A DNA stretch of 43,735 bases from Methanosarcinales archaeon (GTDB lineage Archaea > Halobacteriota > Methanosarcinia > Methanosarcinales > Methanogasteraceae), in NCBI GenBank assembly GCA_030625165.1, contig DAOURL010000001.1, positions 1 through 43,735 on the forward strand, read 5' to 3'. The notes below the pieces were generated by a model. That model did not search any database. It was not told where the DNA came from and was given only the letters and a program-made list of their open reading frames with translations. Each line of letters starts with the position of its first letter. The stretch's first letter is position 1. Shown one piece after another: positions 2,324 through 30,481 of this stretch. The position numbers and the translations under genes were made by a program.

Positions 2324-2374
2324 CTTTTTCCCTCCTTCTTCTCCTCTTTTGTTCCAATGCTCTTGAATTTTTTG

Positions 2375-2665: not shown

Positions 2666-2693
2666 AATTTTTTCTCAGTGATCCATCCCCTTT

Positions 2694-7466: not shown

Positions 7467-7860
7467 GACCCCGATTTGCGGCTCCTCTGCTGCTTATGGA
7501 AAGGCTCAATACATTTGCCCTTTCTTTGCCAAATGAAATGGGGTACGATCTATTGACCCATTCCAGTTAGGGTTATATCGTGACTTCATCCCCGCTACAA
7601 GTAGCGGGGTCTTCTGCCGCGGAGAGTATAAACCTGCGGTACTTGAGGTGCTTGTGTACTTAGAGTCCCACTCAAGTGCTTAACAGTACCGAGGAGGTTA
7701 AACATCTCAGGGATGGTTATCCGGAAGACTTGAAATGGTAAACGATGCAATGATCCTTTCCACATACTTTCATGGAGGAAACAGTTCCCATGAAAAGTGA
7801 CTTCATTGGAGCGATGGATGTTTTGAGGTGATTTCTTCCGATTCTTCTGGTGTGGGAGGT

Positions 7861-9432: not shown

Positions 9433-9643
9433 GCCTATGAATGTTTCTCTGATTTCATGATTTAAAGAACTGATGCATGAATGTTTCTCTCATCGGCAAA
9501 TTTATAACACAGAAAGTTTCAATGAAAGCGATAACTTTACTATACCATACCCTTATGTGTCATCAAATGCTGAAACGAACCATGTGCATCATGCACGATA
9601 TGTACATGGTGCAAACAGCACTGATCGTTACAGAGGTATCAAC

Positions 9644-10057
9644 ATGACAGATGAATTCGAACCAAATATACTGGCGTTCTGCTGTAACTGGTGTTCTTAT
9701 GCTGGTGCAGATCTTGCCGGAGTCAGCAGGTTCCAGTACCCACCGAACATCCGGATCATCCGGGTGATGTGTTCAGGACGGGTCGAGCCCGCGTTCATTC
9801 TTGAGGCATTGAAGGATGGTGCCGATGGCGTGCTGATCACAGGCTGCCATATCGGCGACTGTCATTATATCGATGGCAACAGGAACGCCGAGGTAAGGAT
9901 CAACAACACCATTGACGCACTCAAATATCTCGGACTGGATGGCAGATTACGTCTTGAATGGGTATCTGCGAGCGAAGGAGCACGGTTTGCAGAGGTCGTC
10001 AGCGAGTTCACAGAGGAGATCAGGAAACTTGGACCGAATCCGCTGAAAGAGACATGA
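9644..10057 (+). CDS. mvhD: MvhD/FlpD-like [2Fe-2S] subunit
   Basis: The ATG at 9644 gives MTDEFEPNILAFCCNWCSYAGADLAG...ITGCHIGDCHY, a 137-aa product like its paralogs. The 57 upstream codons of the tracked ORF are not family-like. Confidence 0.85.
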   Translation: MTDEFEPNILAFCCNWCSYAGADLAGVSRFQYPPNIRIIRVMCSGRVEPAFILEALKDGADGVLITGCHIGDCHYIDGNRNAEVRINNTIDALKYLGLDGRLRLEWVSASEGARFAEVVSEFTEEIRKLGPNPLKET

Positions 10058-10083
10058 TGTGTCAGTCTCGCGATTGACACTAC

Positions 10084-10110
10084 TTTTTTTATCGGTGGCA
10101 CGATTTTTTT
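10084..10110 (+). terminator. Two T7 tracts (possible archaeal oligo-T terminators or attenuators)
   Basis: ttttttt occurs at 10084-10090 and at 10104-10110, directly after the mvhD stop. Confidence 0.35.
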
Positions 10111-10214
10111 ACTAGTGGCGCGCCGCGACATCGGAAGGTTTATGGTGTGCAATATCTCATGTCACATGCGATACTTGAGCATTATAGCATAGAGTATCGA
10201 AGGAGGCTTTTACC

Positions 10215-10745
10215 ATGAGGACCCTGGAAGAGGCGCTGAAACTGGAGTACGATTCTGCGAACGCGAATGTTACTGTTTCTGGAGTACCGATAATCCTTAT
10301 AAGCAAGAATACCTTTGGGGTACTCCATAAGGAGTTGATATCTGTCCTTGGAAGAGGTGCAGAGGGCGTGCTGTACCACGCGGGATATGAGGGCGGCAGG
10401 AAAGGCTTTAAACATATAGCCCGGTGGTGGGATTTTGATGTTAAGGACCGGGAAGAGATCATCAGTGCTTATGCGCAGATGTTATCAAGGTTCGGATGGT
10501 TGAACCTTGAAGATGTCGAGGTGGATGACCAGAAGAATGAGGTCGTAATAACAGCTAAGAATTGCTTTGAGGCGCGCAAGTATGCTGGTCAGGCAGATAA
10601 ACCTGTTTGCCATTATATTAGGGGCTTTTTGTGCGGCTTTGTGGAGTCAGCCTTCAAGATGGAGAGCCTCAGGTGTGATGAGGTTAGCTGCCAGGGGAGG
10701 GGAGATGAGATCTGCAAGTTTGTCTTAAAACCGATGTTCTGGTGA
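10215..10745 (+). CDS. V4R (4-vinyl reductase) domain protein
   Basis: Contains GVLHKELISVLGRGAEGVLYHAGYEGGRKG and a C-terminal CHYIRGFLCGFVESAF...CDEVSCQGRGDEICKF, which is the typical V4R small-molecule-binding domain layout. RBS ggagg before the ATG. Confidence 0.7.
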   Translation: MRTLEEALKLEYDSANANVTVSGVPIILISKNTFGVLHKELISVLGRGAEGVLYHAGYEGGRKGFKHIARWWDFDVKDREEIISAYAQMLSRFGWLNLEDVEVDDQKNEVVITAKNCFEARKYAGQADKPVCHYIRGFLCGFVESAFKMESLRCDEVSCQGRGDEICKFVLKPMFW

Positions 10746-10749
10746 TCTT

Positions 10750-11328
10750 GTGCCGGTAATCAAAAGTATCATCCGGTTAAACGATCTGGATACGAACTTT
10801 GTAGATGAAGTGATCGAGACTGGAAGCGAGGTTTTTGGCGAGGAGATACCAAAAACGATCATGGCTTGTATGCAGTGCGGTCGGTGTAGTGGCAGCTGTC
10901 CATCCGGGAGGAGGACGGCTTTTCGGACGCGGAAGATATATCGGGAAGTGGTGCTCGGCTTTCGGGAAAAGGTGCTCTCAAGTGACGAACTCTGGTACTG
11001 TACCACCTGTTACACATGTCAGGAACGATGTCCGAGGGGTGTTAAGACGACCGAGATCATACGGATCCTCAGAAACATCGCAGCAAAAGAGGGGTACATG
11101 TCAAAGTCCCACAAGATGGCGGCAGGACATGTCTTCAGGACCGGGCACGCTGTTGCAATAAACGAGGAGATACAGAACGTTAGAGAGGAACTCGGTCTCA
11201 GCAGGCTCCCTCCAACGACCCATTCCCATCCGGAAGCCCTTGCAAAGTTACAGGATATCCTCAGAAAGACACATTTTGATGAACTGGTCGGTTTTGACTG
11301 GGAAACGATGGAATTAAAGGAGGTCTAA
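10750..11328 (+). CDS. hdrC: HdrC-like 2x[4Fe-4S] subunit
   Basis: CMQCGRCSGSCP and CTTCYTCQERCPRGV motifs. 192 aa, GTG start. Confidence 0.85.
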   Translation: MPVIKSIIRLNDLDTNFVDEVIETGSEVFGEEIPKTIMACMQCGRCSGSCPSGRRTAFRTRKIYREVVLGFREKVLSSDELWYCTTCYTCQERCPRGVKTTEIIRILRNIAAKEGYMSKSHKMAAGHVFRTGHAVAINEEIQNVREELGLSRLPPTTHSHPEALAKLQDILRKTHFDELVGFDWETMELKEV

Positions 11329-11333
11329 ATATT

Positions 11334-12230
11334 ATGGAAGAAAAGACTTATGCCTGTTTCCTGGGCTGTGTTATCCCGAACAGGTATCCCGGGATTGAGT
11401 TGTCAACTGTTAAGATGCTAAGAGAACTGGGCGTCGAGTCGGTTGATATGCCAGGTGCTGGCTGCTGTCCGGCTCCAGGAGTATTCGGGTCATTTGACTT
11501 AAAGACCTGGCTTGCTCTGGCAGCGAGAAACATCTGTATCGCAGAAGAGCTCGGGTGCGATATCATGACCATGTGCAATGGTTGCTATGGATCTCTTCAG
11601 GAGGCTGACCATCTGCTGAAAGGAGACCCGCTACTAAAAGATAAGGTAAATGAGATACTCGCGCCCGAGATGGAATACAAGGGCACGATCAACGTGAAGC
11701 ACCAGGTTGAGATATTCACTGATGATATTGGCATTGAGCGGATAAAAGAAGCCATAACAATGCCCCTTGATGGACTTCGGGTTGGAGTTCATTATGGGTG
11801 CCACTTCTTAAAGCCAAGCGCTGTGCGTGGTCACGGGAAGGCTGAGAGACCAGGGATGGTAGACGCTCTCGTTGAGGTCACCGGTGCAAAGAGCGTGGAG
11901 TACAAGGATAAGATGATGTGCTGCGGCTTTGGCGGAGGAGTCAGGACGAGGGACATCGAGGTTGCTCTTGATATCACGAAGGAGAAGATAACAAACATGT
12001 TGGATGCCGGGGTGGACTGTACTGTTAATCCCTGTGCATCCTGTCACCTGCAGTTTGACAGGGGACAGGTTGAGATCGAACATATCTTTGGAGACCGTTT
12101 CAATCTTCCGGTACTATACTATTCCCAGCTCCTGGGTCTTGCGATGGGGCACGATCCCAGGGAACTTGGCATGCACAAGCAGAACATACCAACTGACCCG
12201 GTACTTGACAAGGTGGAGGGATTGAAATGA
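11334..12230 (+). CDS. hdrB: HdrB-like subunit (two CCG domains)
   Basis: Contains GCCPAPG, CNGCYGSL, MCCGFGGG and PCASCHLQFD. 298 aa. Confidence 0.9.
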   Translation: MEEKTYACFLGCVIPNRYPGIELSTVKMLRELGVESVDMPGAGCCPAPGVFGSFDLKTWLALAARNICIAEELGCDIMTMCNGCYGSLQEADHLLKGDPLLKDKVNEILAPEMEYKGTINVKHQVEIFTDDIGIERIKEAITMPLDGLRVGVHYGCHFLKPSAVRGHGKAERPGMVDALVEVTGAKSVEYKDKMMCCGFGGGVRTRDIEVALDITKEKITNMLDAGVDCTVNPCASCHLQFDRGQVEIEHIFGDRFNLPVLYYSQLLGLAMGHDPRELGMHKQNIPTDPVLDKVEGLK

Positions 12231-14179
12231 ATATTGGAGTCTATGTCTGCCATTGCGGCACGAATATTGCAGGTGTGATCGATGTCGAGAAGGTGACAGA
12301 GTATGCCACTACCCTGGATGGCGTTGTTGTGGCAAGGAATTACAAGTATATGTGCTCTGATCCGGGCAAGGATCTTATCAGAAGCGATATAAAAGAGAAT
12401 AATCTGGATCGCGTGGTGGTTGCAGCCTGCTCTCCTACCATGCATGAGAAGACGTATCGGGATGTGATGGAAGAGATGGGCGGAAATCCGTTCCTCTTTG
12501 AGATGGCAAATATCAGAGAGCAGGACTCATGGGTTCACACGGATAAGGATATGGCAACCGAGAAGGCTTATGACCTGGTGCGGATGGCGGTTGCAAAGGT
12601 CAGGCGAAACGAGCCACTTGAGAGAATCGAGATCCCTGTAACCCAGCGTGCTCTTATTATCGGAGGCGGGGTTGCTGGTATGGAGGCGAGTCTCGACCTT
12701 GCAGAACAGGGCTACGAGGTTATTATGGTTGAGAAGGAGCAGAGCATCGGAGGTCACATGTCTCAGCTTACAAAGACCTTCCCGACACTGGACTGCCCGA
12801 TGTGCATCCTTGCACCGAAGATGGCGCTGCATGAGCATAAGAACATAACCATTTACTCCTTTTCAGAGATCGAAGAGGTCTCTGGCTATGTCGGCAACTT
12901 CGAGGTCTCGATAAGGAAAAAGGCAAAGTCGGTCATAGAAGACCTCTGCAACGGCTGTGGTCTCTGCCAGGAGAAGTGCCCCACAAAGGTTCTGAGCGTG
13001 TATGACGGGAAGCTTGGAACGAGGAAAGCCATCTACACCCTCTTTCCCCAGGCGGTTCCGAGAATTCCGGTTCTGGACAGAGAGAACTGCCTGATGTTCA
13101 CCAAGGGCACGTGCGGCGTATGCAAGAAGGTCTGCCCCACGGATGCTATCGATTATGATCAGCAGGATGAGATCATAACAGAAAAGGTCGGCGCTATAAT
13201 CGTTGCCACCGGTTATGCTGAGTACGACCCAACTCCAATCGAGGAGTACGGCTACGGCAGATACAAGAATGTCCTGACAGGTCTCCAGTTTGAGAGGCTC
13301 ACGAATGCATCAGGACCGACACTGGGCGTGCTCAAGAGACCATCTGATGGCGCCACGCCAAAGAGGTTCGCGTTCATCCAGTGCGTCGGCTCCAGAGATG
13401 TGAATACCCAGGAGTACTGCTCGAAGGTATGCTGTATGTATACTGTTAAGAATGCAAGGCTGCTCAGAGACGAGCATCCGGAGAGCGAGGTGTACATATT
13501 CTACACAGATGTTCGGTCTGCTGGTAAGGGCTACGAGGAGTTCTATAAGATATCCCAGGAGAAAGGCGTCAAATTCATAAGAGGAAGAGTGTCCGAGGTC
13601 GTTGGACTTCCTGATGATAACCTGCTTTTGAGGACAGAGGATACCCTGACCGGGGATGTGTACGAAGTAGAGGTTGACATGGCGATACTGGCGTGCGCGC
13701 TTCTGCCGGCAGAGGGTTCAGATAAGTTAAGAGACATACTGAAGATCTCTGAGGGGACAGATGGGTTCTTCATGGAGGCACATCCCAAGTTAAGACCTGT
13801 TGATACGCTGACCGATGGAATATACCTGGCAGGCTGCGCCCAAGGTCCAAGAGACATAGCAGATACAGTGGTTCATGCCAAGGGTGCTGCTTCTGGCGCG
13901 TCTGTCCTCATATCCCATACGAAGATGAGCCTTGACCCGATCTCGGCTTACAGCGACGAGAGCGTATGCAGGGGATGCGGGGAATGTAAGCTCGTCTGCC
14001 AGTTCGGCGCGATCGAGATCGAGCCTCTGAATGGCAGACTGATTGCTAAGGTAAACGAGGTACTATGCAAGGGGTGCGGTGCCTGTGTCGGTGCATGCTG
14101 CAATGGTGCCATGAGTATAAGACACTTCAAGGATGAGCAGATCAATTCAATGATCGAGGCAGCGATGGAGGTGGCATGA
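12227..14179 (+). CDS. hdrA: HdrA, canonical full architecture
   Basis: All domains are present: N-terminal VYVCHCGTNIAG; IIGGGVAGMEASLDLA; TFPTLDCPMCILAPK; inserted ferredoxin CNGCGLCQEKCP and CGVCKKVCPTDA; QCVGSRD..YCSKVCC; C-terminal CRGCGECKLVCQ and CKGCGACVGACC. ATGA overlap with hdrB. Confidence 0.95.
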   Translation: MNIGVYVCHCGTNIAGVIDVEKVTEYATTLDGVVVARNYKYMCSDPGKDLIRSDIKENNLDRVVVAACSPTMHEKTYRDVMEEMGGNPFLFEMANIREQDSWVHTDKDMATEKAYDLVRMAVAKVRRNEPLERIEIPVTQRALIIGGGVAGMEASLDLAEQGYEVIMVEKEQSIGGHMSQLTKTFPTLDCPMCILAPKMALHEHKNITIYSFSEIEEVSGYVGNFEVSIRKKAKSVIEDLCNGCGLCQEKCPTKVLSVYDGKLGTRKAIYTLFPQAVPRIPVLDRENCLMFTKGTCGVCKKVCPTDAIDYDQQDEIITEKVGAIIVATGYAEYDPTPIEEYGYGRYKNVLTGLQFERLTNASGPTLGVLKRPSDGATPKRFAFIQCVGSRDVNTQEYCSKVCCMYTVKNARLLRDEHPESEVYIFYTDVRSAGKGYEEFYKISQEKGVKFIRGRVSEVVGLPDDNLLLRTEDTLTGDVYEVEVDMAILACALLPAEGSDKLRDILKISEGTDGFFMEAHPKLRPVDTLTDGIYLAGCAQGPRDIADTVVHAKGAASGASVLISHTKMSLDPISAYSDESVCRGCGECKLVCQFGAIEIEPLNGRLIAKVNEVLCKGCGACVGACCNGAMSIRHFKDEQINSMIEAAMEVA

Positions 14180-14586
14180 TGGAGCCAAAGATCGTTGCTT
14201 TCTGCTGTAAGTGGTGTTCGTCTGCCGGAGCAGACCTTGCAGGCACATCGAGGATGAAGTATCCTCCAAATATCAGGATCATCAGGGTCATGTGTTCGGG
14301 AAGAATCGAACCCTCATATATTCTCCATGCTCTCGAGCTTGGCGCTGATGGTGTCATCATAACAGGCTGTCATCTCGGTGACTGCCATTACATCGCGGGA
14401 AACGAACAGGCAAAAAAGCGGGTTGAGATGACGACAGAACTTCTTGAGACGATGGGGATCGACCCGCGAAGACTCCGTCTGGAATGGATTTCAGCGTCAG
14501 AGGGTGCCAGATTTGCAAGCGTGATGACCGATTTCGTTGAGGAGATAAAAGAGCTTGGGCACAGTCCTCTGGGAGGTGTATCATGA
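14176..14586 (+). CDS. mvhD: MvhD/FlpD-like [2Fe-2S] subunit
   Basis: Contains FCCKWCSSAGADLAG, RVMCSGR and ITGCHLGDCHY. ATGA overlaps on both sides. Confidence 0.9.
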   Translation: MMEPKIVAFCCKWCSSAGADLAGTSRMKYPPNIRIIRVMCSGRIEPSYILHALELGADGVIITGCHLGDCHYIAGNEQAKKRVEMTTELLETMGIDPRRLRLEWISASEGARFASVMTDFVEEIKELGHSPLGGVS

Positions 14587-15740
14587 CGGCAGTAGACGAT
14601 CTTATGCGGGATGCCGGAGCCTATTACTGTATTGAATGCGGTAAGTGTACAACCGTCTGCCCGATTGCTAATGCCGACCCTGAGTTTGCTCCCAGATTGA
14701 TCGTGGTAAAGGCGATGGCTGGCATTGCGAATGTTGCACTGGAGCCGGACATCTGGAGATGCATGACCTGTGAGACCTGTAGCGAGATGTGCCCGTATAA
14801 TGTTCTCTACTCCGAGTTTATAAGGGGACTCAGGGCAGAGGCGGCCTCCATGGGAATCGTTTCTGTCTGCTCTCAGCACGATCTGATGCAGACCATGATG
14901 AGGATGATGGCGACTCCAGGGATAGAGCAGAATAGACTGGGCTGGGTCACTCCGGACTTGAAGATTGCTGATAAAGGAGAGGTCTTCTACTTCACAGGCT
15001 GTCTGCCCCAGATGAGTACCATCTTTAGGGATCAAGAGGATCTGAACCTGATCGGGATCGCTCAGAGTGCTGTTGCGATATTCAATCGCGCAGGTATCAC
15101 GCCTGTTGTGAGCAATCAGGAGGTCTGCTGCGGTCATGATCTGAACTGGACTGGCGATGAAGTGAACTTTGAGAAACTGATGAGGATAAACCTGGATTTG
15201 ATCAAGAAGAGCGGGGCTACGAAGGTTGTTTTCACCTGTGCCGAGTGCCTGAGAACATTTGAGATCGATTACCAGGATATAGCAGGCGATCTGGATTACG
15301 AGCTCCTGCACATCTCTGAGTTTGTCGATGACCTCGTGGCTGAGGGGAAGATCACCTTCGATGGTGTCGAGGAGAAGGTCACCTACCATGACCCATGCAG
15401 ACTTGGAAGGCACCTCGGCATATACGATGCTCCCAGGAATGTTATCGGAGCGATAGAGGGCATGGACTTGATCGAGATGGAGAGAACCAGGGAAAAATCA
15501 GCCTGCTGCGGAGTAAGCGCATGGCTTACCTGCGATAGCATTGCAAAGGAGATGCAGCTTGCGCGCATGGTGGAGGCTGTGGGAACCGGAAGCAAAAAAC
15601 TCATAACATCCTGTCCGAAGTGCCAGATTCATCTGAGGTGTGCGATCTCTGAGGAGATGCCGATTGAGAGGGAGAAGGCAGACATACCGATCGAGGACTT
15701 CACCATTCTGGTCGCAAATTCGATAAAAACAGGAGCGTGA
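14583..15740 (+). CDS. Soluble HdrD-like protein (fused HdrC/HdrB-type: 2x[4Fe-4S] plus two CCG domains)
   Basis: Contains CIECGKCTTVCP, CMTCETCSEMCP, CCGHD, CAECLRTF, CCGVS and CPKCQIHL. No transmembrane segments and no adjacent hdrE. Confidence 0.8.
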   Translation: MTAVDDLMRDAGAYYCIECGKCTTVCPIANADPEFAPRLIVVKAMAGIANVALEPDIWRCMTCETCSEMCPYNVLYSEFIRGLRAEAASMGIVSVCSQHDLMQTMMRMMATPGIEQNRLGWVTPDLKIADKGEVFYFTGCLPQMSTIFRDQEDLNLIGIAQSAVAIFNRAGITPVVSNQEVCCGHDLNWTGDEVNFEKLMRINLDLIKKSGATKVVFTCAECLRTFEIDYQDIAGDLDYELLHISEFVDDLVAEGKITFDGVEEKVTYHDPCRLGRHLGIYDAPRNVIGAIEGMDLIEMERTREKSACCGVSAWLTCDSIAKEMQLARMVEAVGTGSKKLITSCPKCQIHLRCAISEEMPIEREKADIPIEDFTILVANSIKTGA

Positions 15741-17038
15741 AAGTCATGGTAAATAAAGCACTGGTAATTGGCGGCGGGGTTGCTGGCATCCAGGCATCCC
15801 TTGATCTGGCAGACAGAGGCACCGAGGTATATGTTGTTGAGAAAGAACCAAGCATAGGCGGGAGAATGTCGCAACTTGACAAGACCTTCCCGACAAACGA
15901 CTGCTCGATATGCATCCTTGCCCCGAAGATGGCTGACTGCTTCGGGCATTCCAACATCAATGTCATGACCTACTCTGAGGTACAGGATGTAACCGGCAGC
16001 GCTGGAGATTTCACAGTAACCGTCCTCAAGAAAGCGAGGTATGTGGACGCTGAAAAATGTACCGGCTGCGGGGAATGCATGGAGAAGTGCCCGGTTAAGA
16101 AGATACCAAACAAGTTTGAGATGGGTCTTGGTTTCAGGAGGGCTATATACCTACCATTTTTGCAGGCAGTACCAAGGATAGCAACAATCGATGCTGAGAA
16201 CTGTCTGTACCTGACGAAAGGCAAATGCGGAAACTGCGCCAAGGTCTGCCAGAGAGAGGCGATTCTGTACGACCAGAAGGATGAGATAGTCGAGATCAAC
16301 GTGGGCGCAATAATCGTTGCGACAGGCTATGATGTCTGGGACCCGACTCCTGCGAGCGAGTACGGGTATGGCAGGTATCCCAATATCTATACTGCAATGG
16401 AATATGAGCGGCTCATCTGTGCTGCAGGTCCGACGCAGGGTCACATGGAACGGAGGTCGGATGGAAAAAGACCCAAAAAGATTGCATTCATCCAGTGTGT
16501 GGGTTCCAGAAATGTCCAGATGGGACGCCCCTATTGTTGTAGCGTCTGCTGCATGCACGCAACGAAAGAGGCGATCCTTGCAAGAGAGCACCATGACGAT
16601 ATCGAGAGTTTCATATTCTATAAAGCCCTCCGCACCTTTGGAAAGGGCTTCAATGAGTATATGGAGCGTGCCAAATCGGACTACGGCGTAGTTTACATAA
16701 ACTCGGATGCAACGGTACAGGAAAACCCTGAGAACCAGAACCCGATCGTTGTTTACGATCTCGATGGGCACATCGAGAAGAAGGAAGTGGATATCGTGGT
16801 ACTGGCAACATCCCTGATCCCGAGACCAGAGACGAGGGTACTGGCTGAAAAGATCGGCATAAGTGTGGACCAGTTCGGATTTCTGGAGTCCGTAGACAAG
16901 CTTCTGGCTCCTCTGGATACGAAGATTCCAGGGATATTCCTTGCTGGCTACTGCCACGAGCCCATGGACATACCAGAAGCGGTCGCTCAGGCGAGCGGTG
17001 CTGCTGCAAGGGCATCCGAAGTGATGGAGGTGGGATAG
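15737..17038 (+). CDS. hdrA: HdrA-like, A' architecture (FAD domain plus inserted ferredoxin only)
   Basis: Starts directly at ALVIGGGVAGIQASLDLA. Contains TFPTNDCSICILAPK, CTGCGECMEKCP, CGNCAKVCQREA and QCVGSRN..CCSVCC. It has no N-terminal CxCG domain and no C-terminal ferredoxin. Ends with TAG at 17036-17038. Confidence 0.85.
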   Translation: MKVMVNKALVIGGGVAGIQASLDLADRGTEVYVVEKEPSIGGRMSQLDKTFPTNDCSICILAPKMADCFGHSNINVMTYSEVQDVTGSAGDFTVTVLKKARYVDAEKCTGCGECMEKCPVKKIPNKFEMGLGFRRAIYLPFLQAVPRIATIDAENCLYLTKGKCGNCAKVCQREAILYDQKDEIVEINVGAIIVATGYDVWDPTPASEYGYGRYPNIYTAMEYERLICAAGPTQGHMERRSDGKRPKKIAFIQCVGSRNVQMGRPYCCSVCCMHATKEAILAREHHDDIESFIFYKALRTFGKGFNEYMERAKSDYGVVYINSDATVQENPENQNPIVVYDLDGHIEKKEVDIVVLATSLIPRPETRVLAEKIGISVDQFGFLESVDKLLAPLDTKIPGIFLAGYCHEPMDIPEAVAQASGAAARASEVMEVG

Positions 17039-18847: not shown

Positions 18848-19159
18848 GGAGATCGATCTTTTCATCATGAAAAACGAGTGAAAACTGCCCTTCCGTAGCG
18901 GGTTGGCTGCCATCGGGTCGGAGATCGTTTTCGTTAGCGAGGAGCGAAGTAAAGGCGCTTCCAATAAACGAAATCTTTTAATAGTACCGTATCCGTTACA
19001 CTTCATAAGCGAACAGACAGGTGCTGATTATTCGTGTCTGACATACACAAACGTTGCATACGCAAACCAAACCAGAAGCGATCAGGTGTATTTAGCTATC
19101 CATCACTGCGTGTTGATTTCAGTATACTACTCACTTCAACATCACCAGGAGGTTATTAA

Positions 19160-19738
19160 ATGAACACAATAAAGGCAGCAGATTTCGATCCGAATTTCAA
19201 ATTCGAGATCGAGAAGGAACTTGGAGGAGAACATCTCACCAAATGTTTCAACTGCACCGGCTGTACGGTTGGCTGTCCGATCACTGAGATCGAGCCAACA
19301 TACAATCCGAGAAAAGCCATGAGAATGGCGATACTCGGGATGAAGAAGGAACTATTCGAGAGCGAGATCATGTGGCTCTGCGTCTCCTGTTATACCTGTT
19401 ATGACCAGTGTCCGCAGGACGTTCGGATCACCGATGTGTTAAACGCGATGAAGAACATCGCAGAGCGCGAGGAACGGATGGGGCATATCAAACTGGAGAG
19501 TGCAAAGCCAGCGTTCGACAAGGAGTTTGTGGACTCCATCAAGAGACATGGCGAGGTGTATGAAACAGGTGTTGTCATTGCCCAGATCGTGAAACATCAG
19601 GGTATCAAGCGATTGTTTGAATATACCTCGACAGGAATCTTCATGTTCAAAAAAGGAAAACTTTCGCTCATCCCAAAGAACATTAAGGGAATGAAACAGA
19701 TCAAGAATATATTCAGAGTTGTGAGGGGGGAAAAATGA
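19160..19738 (+). CDS. hdrC: HdrC-like 2x[4Fe-4S] subunit
   Basis: CFNCTGCTVGCP and CVSCYTCYDQCPQDV motifs. RBS aggagg before the ATG. Confidence 0.85.
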   Translation: MNTIKAADFDPNFKFEIEKELGGEHLTKCFNCTGCTVGCPITEIEPTYNPRKAMRMAILGMKKELFESEIMWLCVSCYTCYDQCPQDVRITDVLNAMKNIAEREERMGHIKLESAKPAFDKEFVDSIKRHGEVYETGVVIAQIVKHQGIKRLFEYTSTGIFMFKKGKLSLIPKNIKGMKQIKNIFRVVRGEK

Positions 19739-20604
19739 AGTTTTCATATTATCCAGGGTGTGTGATGCACGGAACCGCAGTTGAATTCGGGATGTCCACC
19801 CTGGCAACGTGCGGAACGCTCGGAATCGATATCGTCGAGATACCTGACTGGAACTGCTGCGGAGCGCTGGAGGTATACCCTGATATGTATCTCGAGCTTG
19901 CGTTATCTGCAAGAAATGCGGCTATTGCGGAAGAGACAGGTTTTCCGATGATGACTACCTGTGCGATCTGCTTCCATAATGTATCAAAGGCATATTTTGC
20001 TGTAAACGAGAGCGAAAAAGCAAAGGATATGATAAACGATGCGCTCGGGGATATGAAATACGAGGGAAAAGAGGCGATCAGGCATCTGCTCGATATCCTT
20101 GTATCCGATTATGGTCTTGAGAATATAACAGCAAAGGTCAAGAGATCGCTCGATGGACTAAAAGTAGCACCGTTCTACGGATGTTTGCTGGCAAGACCAA
20201 AGGAGATTGCACGGTTCGATGATCCTGAGAATCCGCAGTTTCTTGACAGACTGATCGATGCTCTCGGAGCTGAGTCGGTGCCATTCGAGCATAAGATGAA
20301 GTGCTGTGGAGGCTCGCTTTTGATGAGCAGGGAGGATCTTGCACATCACCTGTCAAGGGAGATTCTCGAGGAAGCGGTGAACGTCGGCGCAGACTGCCTT
20401 GTGATCACCTGCCCGATGTGCAATGTGCTTCTTGATCTCCAGCAGAAGGAGATCGAGAAACGATACGGCATCACGCTCAACATGCCTGTTCTCTATTTCA
20501 CGCAGTTGATCGGTCTTGCACTCGGACATAAGCCAAAGGAACTCGGACTGGACAAGAACATGGTATCGACTGCGAGCGTTACAAAAAAATTAGGAGTTGG
20601 TTAA
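19735..20604 (+). CDS. hdrB: HdrB-like subunit (two CCG domains)
   Basis: Contains NCCGALE, CAICFHN, KCCGGSL and CPMCNVLLD. ATGA overlap with hdrC. Confidence 0.85.
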   Translation: MKFSYYPGCVMHGTAVEFGMSTLATCGTLGIDIVEIPDWNCCGALEVYPDMYLELALSARNAAIAEETGFPMMTTCAICFHNVSKAYFAVNESEKAKDMINDALGDMKYEGKEAIRHLLDILVSDYGLENITAKVKRSLDGLKVAPFYGCLLARPKEIARFDDPENPQFLDRLIDALGAESVPFEHKMKCCGGSLLMSREDLAHHLSREILEEAVNVGADCLVITCPMCNVLLDLQQKEIEKRYGITLNMPVLYFTQLIGLALGHKPKELGLDKNMVSTASVTKKLGVG

Positions 20605-20605
20605 G

Positions 20606-23600
20606 ATGATCGGTGCAGTTGCAGTTATAGGAGGGGGGATTGCCGGAATACAGGCATCACTCGATCTCGCAGACAGCGGTTACAAGGTGTATGTAATCGA
20701 GAAGACCCCGAGTCTCGGCGGGATCATGGCACAGCTGGATAAGACCTTCCCGACACAGGATTGCTCGTTGTGCATTCTTTCGCCAAAACTGGTGGAGGCT
20801 GGCAGACATCCGAACATTGAACTTCTCACATACACCGAGGCACTCAAGGTAACAGGTTCTGCTGGCGACTTCAAGGTTACTGTTAAGAAGAAGGCGAGAT
20901 ACGTCGATCTGGATAAGTGCACAGGATGTGGATTGTGCGCTGAGAAATGTCCGAGCAAGGTACTATCCGAGTATGATGCAGGAATCGGCAAGAGAAAGGC
21001 GATCTACATCCCGTTTCCGCAGGCGATGCCGAGAGCGGCAACGATCGATGCCGAGCACTGTCTGTATCTGACGAAAGGGAAGTGCGGCGTCTGCAAGAAA
21101 GTCTGTGATGCAGGTGCGATCGATTACGAACAGAAGGATGAGATTGTCGATCTCAATGTCGGTGCTGTCATACTTGCATGTGGACTGGGTACGTTCGATC
21201 CATCGGTATTGACTCAGTACAAATCCGATCACCCAAACGTGGTCACTGCTCTCCAGATGGAGCGTCTGCTCAGTGCATCAGGACCGACTGGTGGTCATGT
21301 GGAACGCCCGAGCGATGGAAAGACCCCGAAGAAGATCGCTTACATCCAGTGCATCGGATCAAGGGATCAGCACAAGACCAACGAATACTGCTCCTCGGTC
21401 TGTTGCATGTATGCGGTCAAGCAATCGATTGTGGCGCTGGAACATGACCCCAATCTGGATATCACGATATTCAGCATCGATGTGCGCGCGGTCAGTAAGG
21501 GTTTCGAGGAACTGTATCAGAAAGCAAAGAATGAACTTGGCATCCGCTACATCATCTCAAGACCACCAGCAGTCTATGAAACAGATGGAGAATTATGGGT
21601 CAAGTATGAGGATGTGGAGGAGGGCGTGGTCAAGCGCATGGATCTTGACATGGTCATTCTTTCGGTCGGTCTCCAGATCACACCACCGGTCAGAGAACTA
21701 CTGGAATCATCCGGAATCGAACTCGATCGATTCGGGAATGTCGCAACCGCAGAAGAGTCTCCTGTTGAGACGAACATACCGGGCATATTTACGTGCGGCA
21801 CATTGCAGGATCCAAAGGACATTCCGACTTCGGTTGCACAGGCATCCGGAGCTGCTGCAATGGCACATGCCATGCTCACTCCCACGCGTGGAACGATGGT
21901 CACCGAGCTTACATATCCGGAAGAGAGGGATATCGGGGATACCCCAAGAGTTGGCGTCTTTGTGTGCCACTGCGGCATCAACATAGGAGGCGTGGTGGAT
22001 GTGCCAGCAGTCGCTGAATATGCAAAAACGCTTCCGAATGTTGTGTTTGCCGCCGATAACCTGTATATGTGTGCAAGCGATGCCCAGGAAATGCTAAAGG
22101 ATATGATCAGGGAGCATGACTTGAACCGGATTGTGGTTGCATCATGCACTCCAAGAACGCATGAACCGCTCTTCCAGACGACATGCAGGGAGGCAGGGTT
22201 AAATCCGTATCTCTTCGAACTCGCCAATATCAGGGAGCATTGCTCATGGGTTCACCAGAAGGAGCCTGAGCGCGCAACCGAGAAGGCAAAAAAGATCGTC
22301 AGGATGGCGGTTGCAAAAGCGAGTTTGTATGAACCGTTGTACAAGCAGGAGGTTCCGCTCATCCACAATGCAGTAGTCATTGGCGGCGGGGTTGCTGGCA
22401 TGTCCGCAGCAATCGAACTTGCTGAGATGGACTTCCCTGTAACCCTGATTGAGAGAGAAGCAGAACTTGGCGGACTGATGAGACGGGTCACAAAACTCCA
22501 TTACGGAAAGGATGCTGCTGATGTCGTTTCCGAACTTGATTCCAAGGTCAGGTCGCATTCAAACATAACGCTTCATACCCAGTCAAAACTTGCATCACTG
22601 GAAGGGTTCCTTGGAAACTTCAAGGGAACGATCGAAACGCCGGAAGGCGCTATTGAACATGAATTTGGGGTTGCGATCATCGCAACCGGTGGCATGGAAC
22701 TTGTGCCCGACGGATATTATGAGTACGGCAAACCAAACATCGTAACACAACTGGAACTTGAGGAGCGGTTGAAGAGCGGACTCGATGTCAAGAACGTGGT
22801 CATGATCCAGTGCGCTGGAGCCAGAAACGATGTCCGGAGATACTGTTCCAGAATCTGCTGCATCGAGGCTGTCAAGAATGCGATACGCATCAGACAGGAA
22901 AGCGATGCAAACGTATATGTTCTGTACAAGGATATGCGGACTTATGGACGATGGGAGGGCATGTACCAGTATGCAAGGGATCTCGGTGTTGTGTTCATAC
23001 GGAGACCTGATGACAAGGACCCGGTTGTTACGGATAACATGGTGCTCGTGCATGACATGCTACTCGGAAGGGATATCGAGATCGACACCGATCTCATCGT
23101 ACTGAGCGCGCCGCTCGTTGCGCCAGATGATGCAGAGGAGACTGCGATGATGTTCAAGGTTCCGCTCGATGCAAACAAGTTCTTCCTTGAGGCGCATGTG
23201 AAATTAAGACCGATTGATTTTGCTACCGAAGGAGTGTTTCTCTGCGGAAGCGCGCACGGTCCGAAGTTCATCGATGAAGCGATTGCTGATGGGGCTGCTG
23301 TGGCATCGAGAGCTGGCAGGATACTTGCAAGTCCGATGCTTGAGACCGAGGCGATCGCGATGGTGGTGGATGAAACAAAATGCATCGGATGCGGCAGGTG
23401 TGTCGAGGTATGTCCGTACGGTGCTCCAGCACTGCATGATGTCGAGGTTACCGTAGAAGAGGTCACGTACACGACAAAGAAGAGCGAGATCAACCCGGCA
23501 GCATGCAAGGGCTGCGGTACATGCGCAACAGGATGCCCGACAAGTGCGATTACTGCACAGCACTTCACGTTCGATTCCATAACTGCATCGATCAGGGCGT

Positions 23601-23719
23601 TTGGTGGCATCAGCGGTAATGGCGATGGGACTGGTGTTATTACTGCAACTAAGACTGCCAGCGATGTGACAGCTGAGGCTACTGAAACATCTGTTGAGGC
23701 GGCTTCGGAAGTGGCATAG
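20606..23719 (+). CDS. hdrA: Fused tandem HdrA (A' module, linker, A'' module), 1037 aa from the ATG
   Basis: The N-terminal half (to about 21880) is collinear with the 15737-17038 product (VIGGGIAGIQASLDLA, TFPTQDCSLCILSPK, CTGCGLCAEKCP, CGVCKKVCDAGA, QCIGSRD..CSSVCC). The C-terminal half (from about 21940) is collinear with the 17039-18847 and 5787-7466 products (VGVFVCHCGINIGG ... CIGCGRCVEVCPYGA, CKGCGTCATGCPTSA). The tracked TTG at 20597 is less likely than the ATG at 20606. TAG stop. Confidence 0.9.
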   Translation: MIGAVAVIGGGIAGIQASLDLADSGYKVYVIEKTPSLGGIMAQLDKTFPTQDCSLCILSPKLVEAGRHPNIELLTYTEALKVTGSAGDFKVTVKKKARYVDLDKCTGCGLCAEKCPSKVLSEYDAGIGKRKAIYIPFPQAMPRAATIDAEHCLYLTKGKCGVCKKVCDAGAIDYEQKDEIVDLNVGAVILACGLGTFDPSVLTQYKSDHPNVVTALQMERLLSASGPTGGHVERPSDGKTPKKIAYIQCIGSRDQHKTNEYCSSVCCMYAVKQSIVALEHDPNLDITIFSIDVRAVSKGFEELYQKAKNELGIRYIISRPPAVYETDGELWVKYEDVEEGVVKRMDLDMVILSVGLQITPPVRELLESSGIELDRFGNVATAEESPVETNIPGIFTCGTLQDPKDIPTSVAQASGAAAMAHAMLTPTRGTMVTELTYPEERDIGDTPRVGVFVCHCGINIGGVVDVPAVAEYAKTLPNVVFAADNLYMCASDAQEMLKDMIREHDLNRIVVASCTPRTHEPLFQTTCREAGLNPYLFELANIREHCSWVHQKEPERATEKAKKIVRMAVAKASLYEPLYKQEVPLIHNAVVIGGGVAGMSAAIELAEMDFPVTLIEREAELGGLMRRVTKLHYGKDAADVVSELDSKVRSHSNITLHTQSKLASLEGFLGNFKGTIETPEGAIEHEFGVAIIATGGMELVPDGYYEYGKPNIVTQLELEERLKSGLDVKNVVMIQCAGARNDVRRYCSRICCIEAVKNAIRIRQESDANVYVLYKDMRTYGRWEGMYQYARDLGVVFIRRPDDKDPVVTDNMVLVHDMLLGRDIEIDTDLIVLSAPLVAPDDAEETAMMFKVPLDANKFFLEAHVKLRPIDFATEGVFLCGSAHGPKFIDEAIADGAAVASRAGRILASPMLETEAIAMVVDETKCIGCGRCVEVCPYGAPALHDVEVTVEEVTYTTKKSEINPAACKGCGTCATGCPTSAITAQHFTFDSITASIRAFGGISGNGDGTGVITATKTASDVTAEATETSVEAASEVA

Positions 23720-23747
23720 GTAAATCGAGGTGATGAGACGGATCAAA

Positions 23748-23792
23748 GGGCTTGAATCTCCGGGAGGGAGGTTTGAGCCCACTGCTATTTTT
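23748..23792 (+). terminator. Hairpin plus T5 tract after the fused hdrA
   Basis: GGGCTTGAATCTCC (23748-23761) pairs over 14 positions with GGAGGTTTGAGCCC (23767-23780), counting three G-U pairs in the plus-strand RNA. A 5-nt loop separates them, and ttttt follows at 23788-23792. Confidence 0.5.
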
Positions 23793-23843
23793 ATCTTATT
23801 ATTTGAGAGATGCAGGCATCTGTCAGCGGCGATCTTCGGTACC

Positions 23844-24788
23844 TCATACGATCTTCTCAATCGTTCTGATGAACTCATCATTCCTGACATAGTTCATGTC
23901 GATACCAAGTTCCTGCGGCGTATATCCCATACCAAGCCCAAGTAGTTGCGAATAATGAATGATTGGCATAACACCCCGCCCTTGCGGGCGGTGGTGTCGA
24001 TGGGTCGCTCTTGGCGATCCATTATTGAAAATATCTCCGAACTTCTTTTCAATATCGATCTGACCAGCATCCATCTGTAGATGGCAGAACGGGCATGAAT
24101 CCACGATGCAGTCAGCGCCGGCATCCCGCGCATGTTCGAGTTTGGCTCTGGTAAAGAGGAGAGACGTATCAAGATCTACAGTCCGCACACCGCCGCCCGC
24201 GCCGCAACATGCATTCTTATCCTTGTACGGAACAGATGTTGCTCCTGTAGCCTCAACAAGTTCATCAAAGAATCTCGGGTTCTCGACACTGCCGAGATGC
24301 CGCTCCTTCGATGGTTTGATCAGATGACAGCCGTAATGCACAGCAACCTTGAGATCGACAGGATACCTGACCGATTCTTTAACCTTCCGGACGCCGATAT
24401 CATCATGCAGATACTCCATGATGTGACGCGCCCGTATCGTACCTTTAAACTCACGTCCGATCTCTGCAAGTGCTTTGTTAACCTCGTTTCGAAGTTCCGG
24501 ATTCTCTTTCAACCTATTGTTTGCATCCGCCAGTGATCCGAAGCAGCCATTGCATACCGTGAGAATATCCACACCCATCTCTTCTGATAACACAATGTTT
24601 CCGGACGCGATTGCAAGCTATATGAGTTCATCGAATGATCTGAAAACTCCAGGTGCCGGACAGCATGATGCTCTTTTGAGTTCCATCAGATGCACGCCGA
24701 GTTCCTCCATCACGAGCTTGGTGGCTTTCTCGATGCCAGGATATCGATTCGGCGCGATGCATCCGAGGAAGAATGATAGTTCGCTCAT
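23844..24788 (-). pseudogene. hdrB: Disrupted hdrB paralog (in-frame TAG and an 18-codon palindromic-element insertion)
   Basis: [20 protein letters not shown]...[16 protein letters not shown], then TAG at 24618-24620, then LAIASGNIVLSEEMGVDILTVCNGCFGSL...ACCGAGGG...CPFCHLQMD, all in one frame. The TAG aligns with Trp in the 11334-12230 paralog. An extra NGSPRATHRHHRPQGRGV sits between FGDIFN and MPIIHYSQLLGL. Confidence 0.7.
23959..24024 (-). repeat. Two-hairpin palindromic element, copy A (in-frame inside hdrB)
   Basis: Read on the minus strand: AATAATG GATCGCCAAGAGCGACC CATCGACACCA CCGCCCGCAAGGGCGG GGTGTTAT. Hairpins are GGATCGC/GCGACCC and CCGCCC/GGGCGG, with a closing stem ATAAT/GTTAT. 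Confidence 0.8.
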
Positions 24789-24850
24789 GATTGGTAATGC
24801 CCTGCCCTTGTGGGCAGTGGTATCGATGGATCGCTCTTGGCGATCCATTA
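24787..24850 (-). repeat. Two-hairpin palindromic element, copy B (immediately 5' of the hdrB start codon)
   Basis: Read on the minus strand: GGTAATG GATCGCCAAGAGCGATCC ATCGATACCA CTGCCCACAAGGGCAG G CATTACC, then aatc ATG. The layout is the same as copy A, and a compensatory C-G to U-A change occurs in the second hairpin. Confidence 0.8.
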
Positions 24851-25024
24851 CCAGAGATCGAGATGTTCAATGGTTCGTCCCACATTTCAGATTTGCCCTG
24901 GATATACTAGTCCGACTCGCGTTCTGCCATCGCGCGCTCTGGCGCATCCTGTGCAGTAAGCACAGAATCAGTTTTGACACCGGATTATCTGAATGTCATG
25001 CCAAGATCGCTGACCCTGATGATA

Positions 25025-26077
25025 TCATTCTTTGAGTTTGCGTGCCAGATACACGGCGAGGTCCACAACCTCAAACGGATAATCGCGCCCGTGCTCTGCG
25101 TCCTCTTCCTCCTTGAGGCAGTTTAAGTGCGCAAGACACTTCGGGCAGGACGTGATCAGCACATCCGCACCTGTCGCTTTCGCCTCGTCCATCCGCATGA
25201 CCCGGAGTGCTTTTGTGCAGTCGTTGCAGTTCATCATCGAACTGACGCCGCAGCAGAGCGCGTTCTCCCTGGTGTGCTGCATCTCGACGATGTTTGCGCC
25301 GGTCGCGGCAATCGCCTTTCGTGGGGCATCATACTCGCCTGTGTGGCGTCCGAGTCTGCACGCGTCGTGGATTGCAGCAGTCGCACTGCCGTTCGTGATC
25401 CCGAGATCAGCATCTGCGAGAACCTGACTGATGTGTTTCACCTCGCAATCGAGGTCGTAATCCATCAGAAACGTCCTGTAACACTCCGCACAACTCACAA
25501 CGAGGGTCTCAATTCCGCTCTCGTTGATAAGCTTTGTATTCTCCTCTTTGAGCTTATCGAACGTCTCCTGATTCCCCTGCCAGAGCTGATCATGCCCGCA
25601 GCATTTGAGCTGCATGATCTTTGGGCTGAGCCCTGCTTTCGAGAGGAGCTTTACAGAGGACGTCGCGATCTCTCCAAAATCCACATCCAAGTCAAAGAAC
25701 ATGTCGTGGAAGTCTACACATCCAGGGAAGTATCCGATTCCAGATGCGTCGCCGCCCTCAAGGAGGGTCGTTTTGCTGTTACCAAGCAGCGTCATTAAGT
25801 TTGCCAGTTCTGTAAAGACGCCTTTGTGTGCGATATCTCTGGGCTCCTTCCCGATTCTCTGATCGAGGAAGAAGTCCAGCAACCGCACACCCTGTGGACA
25901 AGTTGTGACGCACTGTCCACAGGTAAGACAATCCCAGACGTCTGTGTCTGTGTCGTAGATGTTTGAGTCGTAGATCGCACCTCTCGGTGAGAATGGTACA
26001 ACCCTACGCACAGGACAGATGGCAGTACAGGCGCCGCACTGGTAACACACTTGAGAATTGTTCGAATTATTGGTCAC
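25025..26077 (-). CDS. Soluble HdrD-like protein (2x[4Fe-4S] plus two CCG domains)
   Basis: Contains CYQCGACTAICP, CLTCGQCVTTCPQGV, CCGHD, CAECYRTF, CCGVS and CPKCLAHL. 350 aa, no transmembrane segments. Confidence 0.8.
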   Translation of the reverse strand: MTNNSNNSQVCYQCGACTAICPVRRVVPFSPRGAIYDSNIYDTDTDVWDCLTCGQCVTTCPQGVRLLDFFLDQRIGKEPRDIAHKGVFTELANLMTLLGNSKTTLLEGGDASGIGYFPGCVDFHDMFFDLDVDFGEIATSSVKLLSKAGLSPKIMQLKCCGHDQLWQGNQETFDKLKEENTKLINESGIETLVVSCAECYRTFLMDYDLDCEVKHISQVLADADLGITNGSATAAIHDACRLGRHTGEYDAPRKAIAATGANIVEMQHTRENALCCGVSSMMNCNDCTKALRVMRMDEAKATGADVLITSCPKCLAHLNCLKEEEDAEHGRDYPFEVVDLAVYLARKLKE

Positions 26078-28729: not shown

Positions 28730-28735
28730 AACTAA

Positions 28736-29422: not shown

Positions 29423-29427
29423 CTACA

Positions 29428-30020: not shown

Positions 30021-30039
30021 GATATTCTAATCTGTTCCA

Positions 30040-30423: not shown

Positions 30424-30481
30424 ATTATTTGCAACCGGTTTGTATTGTCTTTTCTCTCCCAATTTTAAATGGATTGTCAAA

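Follow-up and report, generated by a model that had tools for sequence, protein, structure and literature searches.

A heterodisulfide reductase supercluster without a linked electron-donor gene, lying within a broken Hdr operon of an ANME-2c methanotroph

Introduction

How coenzyme M and coenzyme B (CoM-SH/CoB-SH), together with reduced ferredoxin, are re-oxidized in anaerobic methanotrophic archaea (ANME) is an open question, for which soluble variants of heterodisulfide reductase (Hdr) are the leading candidates. Here, we describe a dense cluster of hdr genes, the supercluster, in contig DAOURL010000001.1 (assembly GCA_030625165.1) of a Methanosarcinales archaeon; the stretch analysed, 43,735 nucleotides (43.7 kb), is referred to throughout as the window. 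The modules that make up the supercluster are already known from related archaea. Two features are unusual: no donor subunit is encoded with them, and they are positioned inside a broken, older Hdr operon. The host is an ANME-2c methanotroph related to Ca. Methanogaster, because its methionyl-tRNA synthetase, A-type ATPase subunit C and HdrD-like protein all cluster, in an exact-sequence comparison, with proteins labelled ‘ANME-2 cluster archaeon / Candidatus Methanogaster’.

Fourteen groups of HdrA have been distinguished in ANME genomes, including tandem (HdrA5/6 and HdrA12/13) and fused (HdrA3 and HdrA4) forms whose two parts are complementary in Cys197 and the N-terminal domain (Chadwick et al. 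2022, PMC9012536). HdrA13 and HdrA12 occur in ANME-1 with HdrD4 and MvhD7/8, and the fused HdrA3 occurs in ANME-2/3 with HdrB3C3D3 and MvhD2; the presence of HdrD-like genes in ANME HdrA clusters and the lack of MvhAG were described in the same study. For ANME-2c, its S10 table gives the loci HdrA1-B2-C2(+D2), FdhA1-FrhB3-MvhD1-HdrA2 and MvhD2-HdrA3-B3-C3-D3. An earlier note on this DNA, made from the sequence alone, had remarked that multiple and tandem HdrA paralogs were not entirely new to ANME and methanogens, and that survey bears it out for ANME. The survey also describes the HdrA of Moorella as a two-module fusion, with complementary loss of Cys197 and the N-terminal domain, that works with HdrBC and MvhD (PMC9012536). 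A further relative is the class II benzoyl-CoA reductase of Geobacter metallireducens, with BamE as a fused HdrA dimer. The N-terminal thioredoxin reductase (TrxR) domain of BamE binds the bifurcating FAD beside Cys59-Cys62 and the second TrxR domain is structural, with the MvhD-like BamF as an adaptor and the HdrD-like BamD as the high-potential output on cluster E4 (bioRxiv 10.64898/2026.04.10.717634).

Gene content and transcription units

Genes were identified by Pfam scans and by direct reading of their junctions. The features of the supercluster are given below.

9644-10057, plus strand: mvhD1 (FlpD domain, E 6e-54; 81% identity to Methanoperedens MvhD)
10215-10745, plus strand: V4R/XylR_N ligand-binding protein, probable first gene of operon 1 (Pfam V4R, XylR_N)
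10750-11328, plus strand: hdrC1 (TIGR03290, 215 bits against a cut-off of 160; two CxxCxxCxxxC motifs)
11334-12230, plus strand: hdrB1 (TIGR03288, 437.7 bits against a cut-off of 345; two complete CCG motifs)
12227-14179, plus strand: hdrA1, canonical four-domain HdrA (E 2e-236 to PDB 8rvu, 1.8e-232 to 5odc)
14176-14586, plus strand: mvhD2 (FlpD domain, E 2e-57; homologs fused to HdrD in Thermoplasmata)
14583-15740, plus strand: hdrD-like gene, HdrC-like ferredoxin domain and two CCG domains (Pfam; all motifs intact)
15737-17038, plus strand: hdrA', HdrA13 type (TrxR core, inserted ferredoxin domain and Cys194/197, without N- and C-terminal domains)
17039-18847, plus strand: hdrA'', HdrA12 type (N-terminal domain, TrxR core and C-terminal ferredoxin domain; poly-Arg insertion)
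18848-19159, plus strand: intergenic spacer of 312 nt, parting operon 1 from operon 2 (TATA-like, AT-rich stretch; no strong terminator)
19160-19738, plus strand: hdrC2 (Pfam; TIGR03290, 83.6 bits against a cut-off of 160; 51% identity to Methanoperedens HdrC3)
19735-20604, plus strand: hdrB2 (two CCG motifs; TIGR03288, 219 bits against a cut-off of 345)
20597-23719, plus strand: fused hdrA'A'', HdrA3-type paralogue (probable start ATG 20606)
23748-23780, plus strand: terminator-like hairpin of 14 bp followed by a T-run, closing operon 2

The scans and the reading of junctions upheld the gene content, order and joins of the earlier note. Within operon 1 there is a 5-nt gap at 11334, followed by ATGA overlaps at 12227, 14176 and 14583, a GTGA overlap at 15737 and a direct abutment of TAG and ATG at 17039. 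At least six other samples or assemblies yield collinear contigs with 93-98% nucleotide identity to the window, which speaks against an artefact of assembly.

The first operon had been said to start with mvhD1, and this now seems to be wrong. The open reading frame (ORF) of mvhD1 reaches back to 9473, and ATG 9644 is its likely start because the FlpD domain begins only at residue 66. Directly 3' of the gene, at 10059-10080, lies a 9-bp terminator-like hairpin with a T-run that had been missed. Because the 157-nt interval that parts mvhD1 from the V4R gene contains this hairpin and two T7 runs, mvhD1 is probably monocistronic, and operon 1 probably runs from the V4R gene through hdrA''. The idea of one unit combining HdrBC, an HdrD-like protein and an A'/A'' pair holds for this tight string of genes, but probably not with mvhD1 as its second MvhD member. 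Operon 2 is likely to be a separate unit, because a 312-nt gap precedes hdrC2 and no operon 2 is found beside operon 1 in Methanoperedenaceae. These calls make use of terminator-like hairpins; a sigma-70 promoter scan, in which sites were no commoner than in shuffles and which is a method unfit for archaea, was set aside. An Rfam scan of the whole window gave no hits. One further ORF, orf86 (18903-19163), is probably not a gene, having no Pfam hit and no gene called at its place in the related contigs L001 and L002.

An asymmetric HdrA core

All HdrA modules were aligned to the HdrA sequence of 5ODC. In hdrA1 every cluster-ligand cysteine is present, including Cys194/197, as are the N-terminal, TrxR, inserted-ferredoxin and C-terminal-ferredoxin domains. 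Both hdrA' and the N-half of the fused protein are without the N-terminal and C-terminal ferredoxin domains, and retain Cys194/Cys197, the TrxR-domain cluster and all eight cysteines of the inserted ferredoxin domain. The pattern is the mirror image in hdrA'', in the fused C-half and in A0, a stand-alone hdrA''-type gene to the left of the supercluster, which have the N-terminal cluster cysteines and an intact C-terminal ferredoxin domain, without Cys194/197 and without the inserted ferredoxin domain. The asymmetric A'/A'' pair and its fused paralogue, proposed in the earlier note, are therefore real, and because the losses of domains and cysteines are complementary, an A'/A'' heterodimer would carry exactly one copy of each element. 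The same A'-A'' order is found fused in proteins of about 1000 residues across many taxa; the tandem genes, which abut in the window, are a split version of the fused hdrA'A'' gene.

Of the groups of Chadwick et al., HdrA13 is the one that A' resembles most (an ANME-1 fragment of HdrA13 is 61% identical to it); A'' is most like HdrA12, and the N-half of the fused protein is most like that of HdrA3. In the alignment of that study HdrA13 is of the A' type, HdrA12 is of the A'' type and the HdrA3 N-half is without the N-terminal domain (PMC9012536); this N-half starts at the TrxR domain and has Cys197, in agreement with the fused protein of the window. It should be noted that the text of the same paper puts the N-terminal iron-sulfur domain in the N-half of the fused HdrA3/4, and that its own S8 alignment and tree have the opposite for HdrA3. 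Known HdrA3 clusters were recovered from Methanogaster and Methanoperedens nitroreducens for comparison. Because the fused hdrA'A'' product is only 59-62% identical to the HdrA3 of Methanogaster (59%) and Methanoperedens, we regard it as a paralogue, not an ortholog, of the tabulated ANME-2c HdrA3. Its AlphaFold2 model (pTM 0.78) would agree with the two halves packing against each other in a defined way. A fold search with this model returned canonical HdrA chains only, and no fused or tandem HdrA was found in the PDB copies searched.

HdrA'' contains an insertion at about residues 322-350, the core of which is the poly-Arg sequence GRRRRRK. Only Thermoplasmata A'' and a second Methanoperedenaceae copy share this insertion; sulfate-reducer, Chloroflexia and fused forms are without it.

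Partner proteins

Cofactor motifs are intact in all HdrB, HdrC, HdrD-like and MvhD proteins of the supercluster, and both HdrD-like proteins of the window keep all CCG cysteines. Only hdrB1 and hdrC1 are above the NCBIfam cut-offs for CoB-CoM heterodisulfide reductase. The HdrD-like proteins reach no NCBIfam equivalog cut-off; TfrB is the best match of both, far below its cut-off, and no HdrD-specific model is among their NCBIfam hits. The best NCBIfam model for hdrA1 is HdrA2, at 870 bits under the cut-off of 1100. The MvhD proteins of the window have 136-137 residues, without an in-frame stop.

The V4R protein is similar to the sensor domains of MopR/CapR and has a weak similarity to the V4R domain of MsvR; its six cysteines all lie within the V4R half, and Pfam detected no DNA-binding domain in it. 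A V4R gene (8059-8523) also precedes hdrC in the Methanoperedenaceae contig L092, its product being 61% identical to that of the window. A search of the literature for V4R together with Hdr found nothing relevant.

For nine supercluster genes compared with the sister species and/or Methanoperedenaceae, dN/dS is 0.04-0.16 (dS is saturated for the V4R gene and hdrC1, and mvhD1 was left out). All compared supercluster genes are under purifying selection.

Comparison with described systems

The window shares with the ANME clusters of Chadwick et al. the complementary pattern of Cys197, N-terminal domain and C-terminal ferredoxin domain, the complementary C-terminal and inserted ferredoxin domains in A'/A'' and the fused halves, the occurrence of HdrD-like and MvhD genes in the cluster, and the lack of MvhAG. 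It differs in that the 13/12-type pair, tabulated only for ANME-1, is here in ANME-2c and ANME-2d; in that the pair is joined to a canonical hdrCBA-mvhD set and a V4R gene; and in having neither the FrhB5 nor the NfnB-type HdrA10/11 neighbours named in the S10 header. Identity with the ANME-2c locus HdrA1-HdrB2-HdrC2 + HdrD2 was considered and ruled out, because in ANME HdrA1 the N-terminal domain and Cys197 occur together and the sequence is different.

With BamDEF of G. metallireducens the window has in common a fused or paired HdrA dimer, in which one bifurcating half carries a Cys-x2-Cys pair and an inserted ferredoxin domain, an MvhD-type adaptor and an HdrD-like output subunit. However, the window is without the tungsten aldehyde ferredoxin oxidoreductase BamB, BamC and the HydABC-like domains of BamGHI; its MvhD is short (136 residues), without the selenocysteine or the winged-helix extension of BamF; its HdrD-like protein keeps all the cysteines of both non-cubane sites, whereas the distal cluster is modified in BamD; and it also has an HdrBC-type module.

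The products of hdrA1, hdrB1, hdrC1 and mvhD2 match the canonical subunits of Mvh-, Fdh- and Elp-HdrABC (5ODC, 7BKB, 8RVU), with all ligands present, but MvhAG, FdhAB and ElpAB are missing from the window and the canonical set shares its operon with an asymmetric HdrA pair and an HdrD-like gene. The MetFV-HdrABC-MvhD complexes of Moorella and Sporomusa, the likeness to which is drawn from the description of Chadwick et al. only, include MetF and MetV, which the window is without. HdrA2B2C2 of Methanosarcina acetivorans is likewise a soluble Hdr of the Methanosarcinales, F420H2-dependent and working with no hydrogenase (PMC6019823); its HdrA is an HdrA-MvhD fusion, unlike hdrA1, and the window proteins are not its orthologs. 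As for membrane-bound HdrDE, no HdrE cytochrome b partner is present among the ORFs scanned in the window.

Electron-donor genes

No domains of hydrogenase, Fdh, FrhB, NuoF or HdrE were found in the candidate ORFs scanned across the window, in agreement with the earlier note, which had listed MvhAG, FdhAB, FrhB-like, NuoF-like and HdrE genes as lacking. The sole F420-linked enzyme of the window is npdG, an NADPH-dependent F420 reductase (39838-40605, plus strand; TIGR01915, 230.8 bits against a cut-off of 149.8), which lies 14 kb from the hdr genes; we know of no link between npdG and Hdr.

Related clusters were surveyed by annotating 80 loci among the matches listed from a scan of species-representative genomes, the distribution found being a lower bound. 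Linked FrhB-like genes are present in at least eight of these related loci (L026 included), FdhA-like genes in at least two (L057, L026), NiFe hydrogenase genes in at least two (L079 included) and NfnB/GltD-like genes in at least four. Within 10 kb, no donor genes were found in the window cluster nor in the Methanoperedenaceae locus L092. Because the clusters of many relatives contain or adjoin donor genes, the missing linked input module is both real and distinctive for the methanotroph versions. The absence of a donor gene from 43.7 kb does not show that the complex is donor-less: ANME-2c genomes hold FdhA1-FrhB3-MvhD1-HdrA2 at a separate locus (PMC9012536, S10 table), and so a donor may exist in trans.

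Related clusters and origin of the module

Among the matches listed, an MvhD-HdrD-A'-A''-MvhD module occurs in Thermoplasmata, Desulfobacteraceae, Syntrophobacterales, Chloroflexi, Bathyarchaeia and another metagenome-assembled genome of the Methanosarcinales. Its carriers include the cultured Desulfoferrobacter suflitae, and it is often flanked by fused HdrAs of about 1000 residues. The whole order hdrC-hdrB-hdrA-mvhD-hdrD-A'-A'' is also found, without V4R, on a chromosome from Chloroflexia, with genes for MvhD and an MvhGA-like NiFe hydrogenase after it; a variant is present in Thermoplasmata. The Methanoperedenaceae contig L092 has V4R-hdrC-hdrB-hdrA-mvhD-hdrD-A'-A'' (75-89% amino acid identity for the Hdr and MvhD proteins); in that contig the operon is preceded by a second set, HdrA-MvhD/HdrD-A'-A''-MvhD. 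The conservation of this order in Methanoperedenaceae and Chloroflexia supports a functional linkage of the operon 1 genes. A distribution limited to one species is ruled out by the Methanoperedenaceae ortholog, which lay outside the matches listed.

Outside ANME-2c and Methanoperedenaceae, the nearest relatives of the HdrD-like protein among the matches listed are from Thermoplasmata (55-61% identity) and are mostly MvhD-HdrD fusions. In a neighbour-joining tree of A', the window, sister-species and Methanoperedenaceae orthologs group inside a Thermoplasmata clade; the sulfate reducers and a second set of archaeal sequences form separate clades. The agreement of this distance tree with one indel in A'' points to lateral exchange of the module with Thermoplasmata.

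In the sulfate-reducer versions of the module, an in-frame stop splits the MvhD gene into two segments of about 70 codons (L088, 9540-9995; also L052, L056, L064, L075, L076, L080 and L085). By analogy with BamF, this stop probably encodes selenocysteine.

A split HdrA3 operon around the supercluster

The surroundings of the supercluster were compared with L007, the Methanogaster HdrA3 locus, which serves as the reference for the operon comparison. The features concerned are as follows.

5376-5786, minus strand: mvhD3, orthologous to MvhD2 in the ANME-2c HdrA3 operon (FlpD, E 2.7e-52; 87% amino acid identity to L007)
5787-7490, minus strand: A0, stand-alone hdrA''-type gene (ORF from GTG 7466; homology to 7490)
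7491-23850, no strand assigned: intervening segment, serA and the whole supercluster (16.36 kb, from blastn/tblastn of L007 against the window)
23850-24788, minus strand: HdrB3 pseudogene (ORF fragment with CCG at 23844-24593)
23969-24024, no strand assigned: palindrome-containing repeat of 56 nt inside the HdrB3 pseudogene; second copy at 24795-24850 (family D12, 88% identity)
25025-26077, minus strand: hdrD2, intact ortholog of ANME-2c HdrD3 (92% amino acid identity to L007 HdrD3; motifs intact)

On this comparison, 5376-7490 and 23850-26077 are the two halves of a single HdrD3-C3-B3-A3-MvhD2 operon, parted by 16.36 kb. A0 abuts mvhD3; both lie to the left of the coordinates covered by the earlier note, and were overlooked there. 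A0 has 90% amino acid identity to residues 449-1015 of L007 HdrA3, its C-half, and begins exactly at the inter-half linker, with a tyrosine at the Cys594 position and stop codons just upstream of the linker. The break thus coincides exactly with the linker that joins the two halves of HdrA3. The 16.36-kb segment stands in place of L007 3323-4681, which is the HdrA3 N-half; this half is absent from the window, and hdrC3 is missing as well. The earlier note had described a convergent third unit of an hdrD-like gene and a disrupted hdrB. Those genes are there, but they do not form an independent module; they are the 5' remnant of the HdrD3-C3-B3-A3-MvhD2 operon.

In hdrB3, a TAG at 24618-24620 replaces a Trp codon, and there is an in-frame insertion of 54 nt that is a copy of the 56-nt repeat. 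One copy of this repeat, which has an internal GC-rich palindrome, thereby gives an 18-residue insertion in hdrB3, and the other stands at the former site of hdrC3; the repeat could be a short element that is mobile or prone to recombination. In a search for its 33-nt core, allowing up to three mismatches, the first copy alone was found, and more diverged copies in the window could escape it. That the TAG encodes pyrrolysine is unlikely, as it is a single transition in a conserved Trp codon, with hdrC3 deleted and the repeat inserted. A simple inversion was also rejected as the cause of the split: reverting it fails to restore the HdrA3 N-half.

An independent JGI contig from a closely related strain, L001, covers the right junction in full. 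On the left side it has pieces of A0 and mvhD3 beside serA-flanking sequence, with deletions in the remnant. In L001 1-340 this remnant consists of two short fragments, matching window 5498-5634 and 6094-6263; they suggest ongoing decay of the remnant, although they could also be an artefact of the contig end. A match of hdrD2 to a 2.6-kb contig identical to the window is possibly the same material and was not counted as independent support. In the sister species, a radical-SAM gene is found downstream of the fused hdrA instead, and the split is therefore recent. Against Methanogaster, dN/dS is 0.09 for mvhD3 and 0.08 for hdrD2 (0.08-0.09 for the remnants overall); such low values would follow from a recent disruption, or from some remnants still being in use. 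Altogether the locus has three mvhD genes and three intact HdrA units with a C-terminal ferredoxin domain. We speculate that mvhD3 and hdrD2 now serve the new fused HdrA, which would fit this match in number.

In the Methanogaster locus L007, the HdrA3 genes are followed by a Y1 (IS200/IS605-type) transposase gene and a partial second mvhD (8832-9134 and 9430-9708). This suggests that other ANME-2c genomes, too, are prone to rearrangement in the region.

Possible explanations

We favour, on balance and with some reserve, the explanation that the locus is a mosaic of three HdrA-type cores for electron bifurcation or confurcation, with a mid-potential partner encoded in trans. Operon 1 would join a canonical HdrA1B1C1 unit and a BamDEF-like unit. 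From the gene fusions and the structure of BamE we infer that HdrA' and HdrA'' form an obligate heterodimer, in which A' would supply the likely bifurcating FAD, the Cys194/Cys197 pair and the cluster wiring to the HdrD-like subunit; its inserted ferredoxin domain would be the low-potential exit to ferredoxin. In operon 2 the same asymmetric core would be present as the single fused hdrA'A'' polypeptide, with an HdrBC-type output. Both operons sit inside the disrupted ancestral HdrD3-C3-B3-A3-MvhD2 operon, and the fused HdrA may now be served by the intact HdrD3 and MvhD of that operon. The mid-potential partner normally docked on MvhD is most likely to be found in trans, for example in the FdhA1/FrhB3 (Elp-like, F420-linked) module of ANME-2c genomes. 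The enzymes would then exchange electrons among ferredoxin, a thiol/disulfide couple and F420 or a carrier like it. Gene content, complementary domains, conservation, purifying selection and the rearrangement are shown by the sequences; the electron paths, the donor in trans, the direction of catalysis and the substrates are, like the heterodimer, proposals.

Several points weigh against this mosaic scheme. The lysine after the CC motif is kept in both TrxR halves, so the bifurcating FAD is not assignable from sequence alone. The products of hdrB2 and hdrC2 and both HdrD-like proteins are below the curated heterodisulfide-reductase cut-offs. The substrate of the HdrD module may differ from CoM-S-S-CoB, because the module is found in organisms not known to make CoM and CoB. 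The donor in trans is an assumption made from other genomes of ANME-2c, and the distribution of the locus among relatives is that found among the matches listed.

The weak scores of the HdrD-like protein, below every equivalog cut-off, bear on a different proposal, namely that mvhD-hdrD-hdrA'-hdrA'' was acquired laterally from Thermoplasmata-like archaea and acts on another disulfide or protein partner, in general redox balancing and not in methane oxidation. The nesting of A' inside the Thermoplasmata clade, the poly-Arg insertion shared with Thermoplasmata A'' and, among the matches listed, the Thermoplasmata affinity of HdrD beyond ANME-2c and Methanoperedenaceae are all in keeping with it, as are the presence of the module in sulfate reducers, Chloroflexi and Bathyarchaeia and the finding that BamD does not bind heterodisulfide (bioRxiv 10.64898/2026.04.10.717634). 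We nevertheless think it rather unlikely, given that the genes share an operon with HdrB1C1, which are above the CoB-CoM reductase cut-offs, that the HdrD-like protein, in contrast to BamD, has two complete CCG motifs, and that the module is kept under purifying selection in two methanotroph families, which suggests a role in core metabolism. Alternatively, operon 1 might encode one self-contained supercomplex, with HdrABC and A'A''-MvhD-HdrD coupled and HdrD-MvhD oxidizing a thiol couple as the input arm, so that hydrogenase, Fdh and FrhB would not be required. The recurrence of the operon-1 order in ANME-2c, Methanoperedenaceae and Chloroflexia, with a variant in Thermoplasmata, would be expected of such a complex, as would the lack of a donor gene within 10 kb in the window or L092. 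In addition, the MvhD-HdrD fusions of many homologs put HdrD at the usual donor-docking port, and two coupled bifurcation modules have a precedent in class II benzoyl-CoA reductase (bioRxiv 10.64898/2026.04.10.717634). In that enzyme, however, BamD is the high-potential output on E4 and not an input; homologous clusters of the same order do have donors (NiFe hydrogenase in L079, FdhA in L057 and L026, FrhB in L026 and others); and CoM-SH/CoB-SH, with an E0' of about -145 mV (PMC9012536), would be an awkward bifurcation donor unless there were a higher-potential acceptor, a difficulty that a lower-potential dithiol would avoid. We judge a supercomplex of this kind to be unlikely. A more specific version, a donor-less supercomplex of HdrABC and a Thermoplasmata-derived A'A''-MvhD-HdrD that links two thiol/disulfide sites and ferredoxin in ANME-2c and some Methanoperedenaceae, is more doubtful still.

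The decay of the neighbouring HdrA3 operon (loss of hdrC3 and of the HdrA3 N-half, and a nonsense codon and an insertion in hdrB3) and the deletions in A0 and mvhD3 of strain L001 might be taken to mean that the entire locus is a decaying, non-functional pile of genes, or a chimera, as paralogous repeats could mislead assemblers. This is highly improbable: collinear contigs come from several independent samples, all ORFs of the supercluster are intact with complete cofactor motifs, dN/dS is low against two lineages, and the operon is kept in another family, the Methanoperedenaceae.

Other genes in the window

On the minus strand at 27663-32041 is a degraded-looking type I restriction-modification locus, in which hsdM (30482-32041) is intact and the HsdR-like gene is present only as a C-terminal fragment of 224 residues that overlaps the hsdS ORF. 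At 628-3735, a CBS-domain gene lies between two Na+/H+ exchanger genes; the second of these (2872-3735) matches profile positions 137-370 only, and may be truncated or frameshifted.

Significance

The asymmetric HdrA core, known from ANME-1, is present in ANME-2c and ANME-2d, in one operon with a canonical HdrABC, and is part of a module common to anaerobes among both archaea and bacteria. It is the methanotroph versions in particular that have no linked donor genes, whether through loss or because these were never there. If a donor-less supercomplex did exist, it would provide a soluble oxidation of CoM-SH/CoB-SH for methanotrophs without hydrogenase, Fdh or F420 modules. The split HdrA3 operon indicates that sets of Hdr genes are being replaced within ANME-2c. 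Finally, a closely related operon is found in Methanoperedenaceae, which can be enriched in bioreactors, and the composition and partners of the complex are thereby open to biochemistry.

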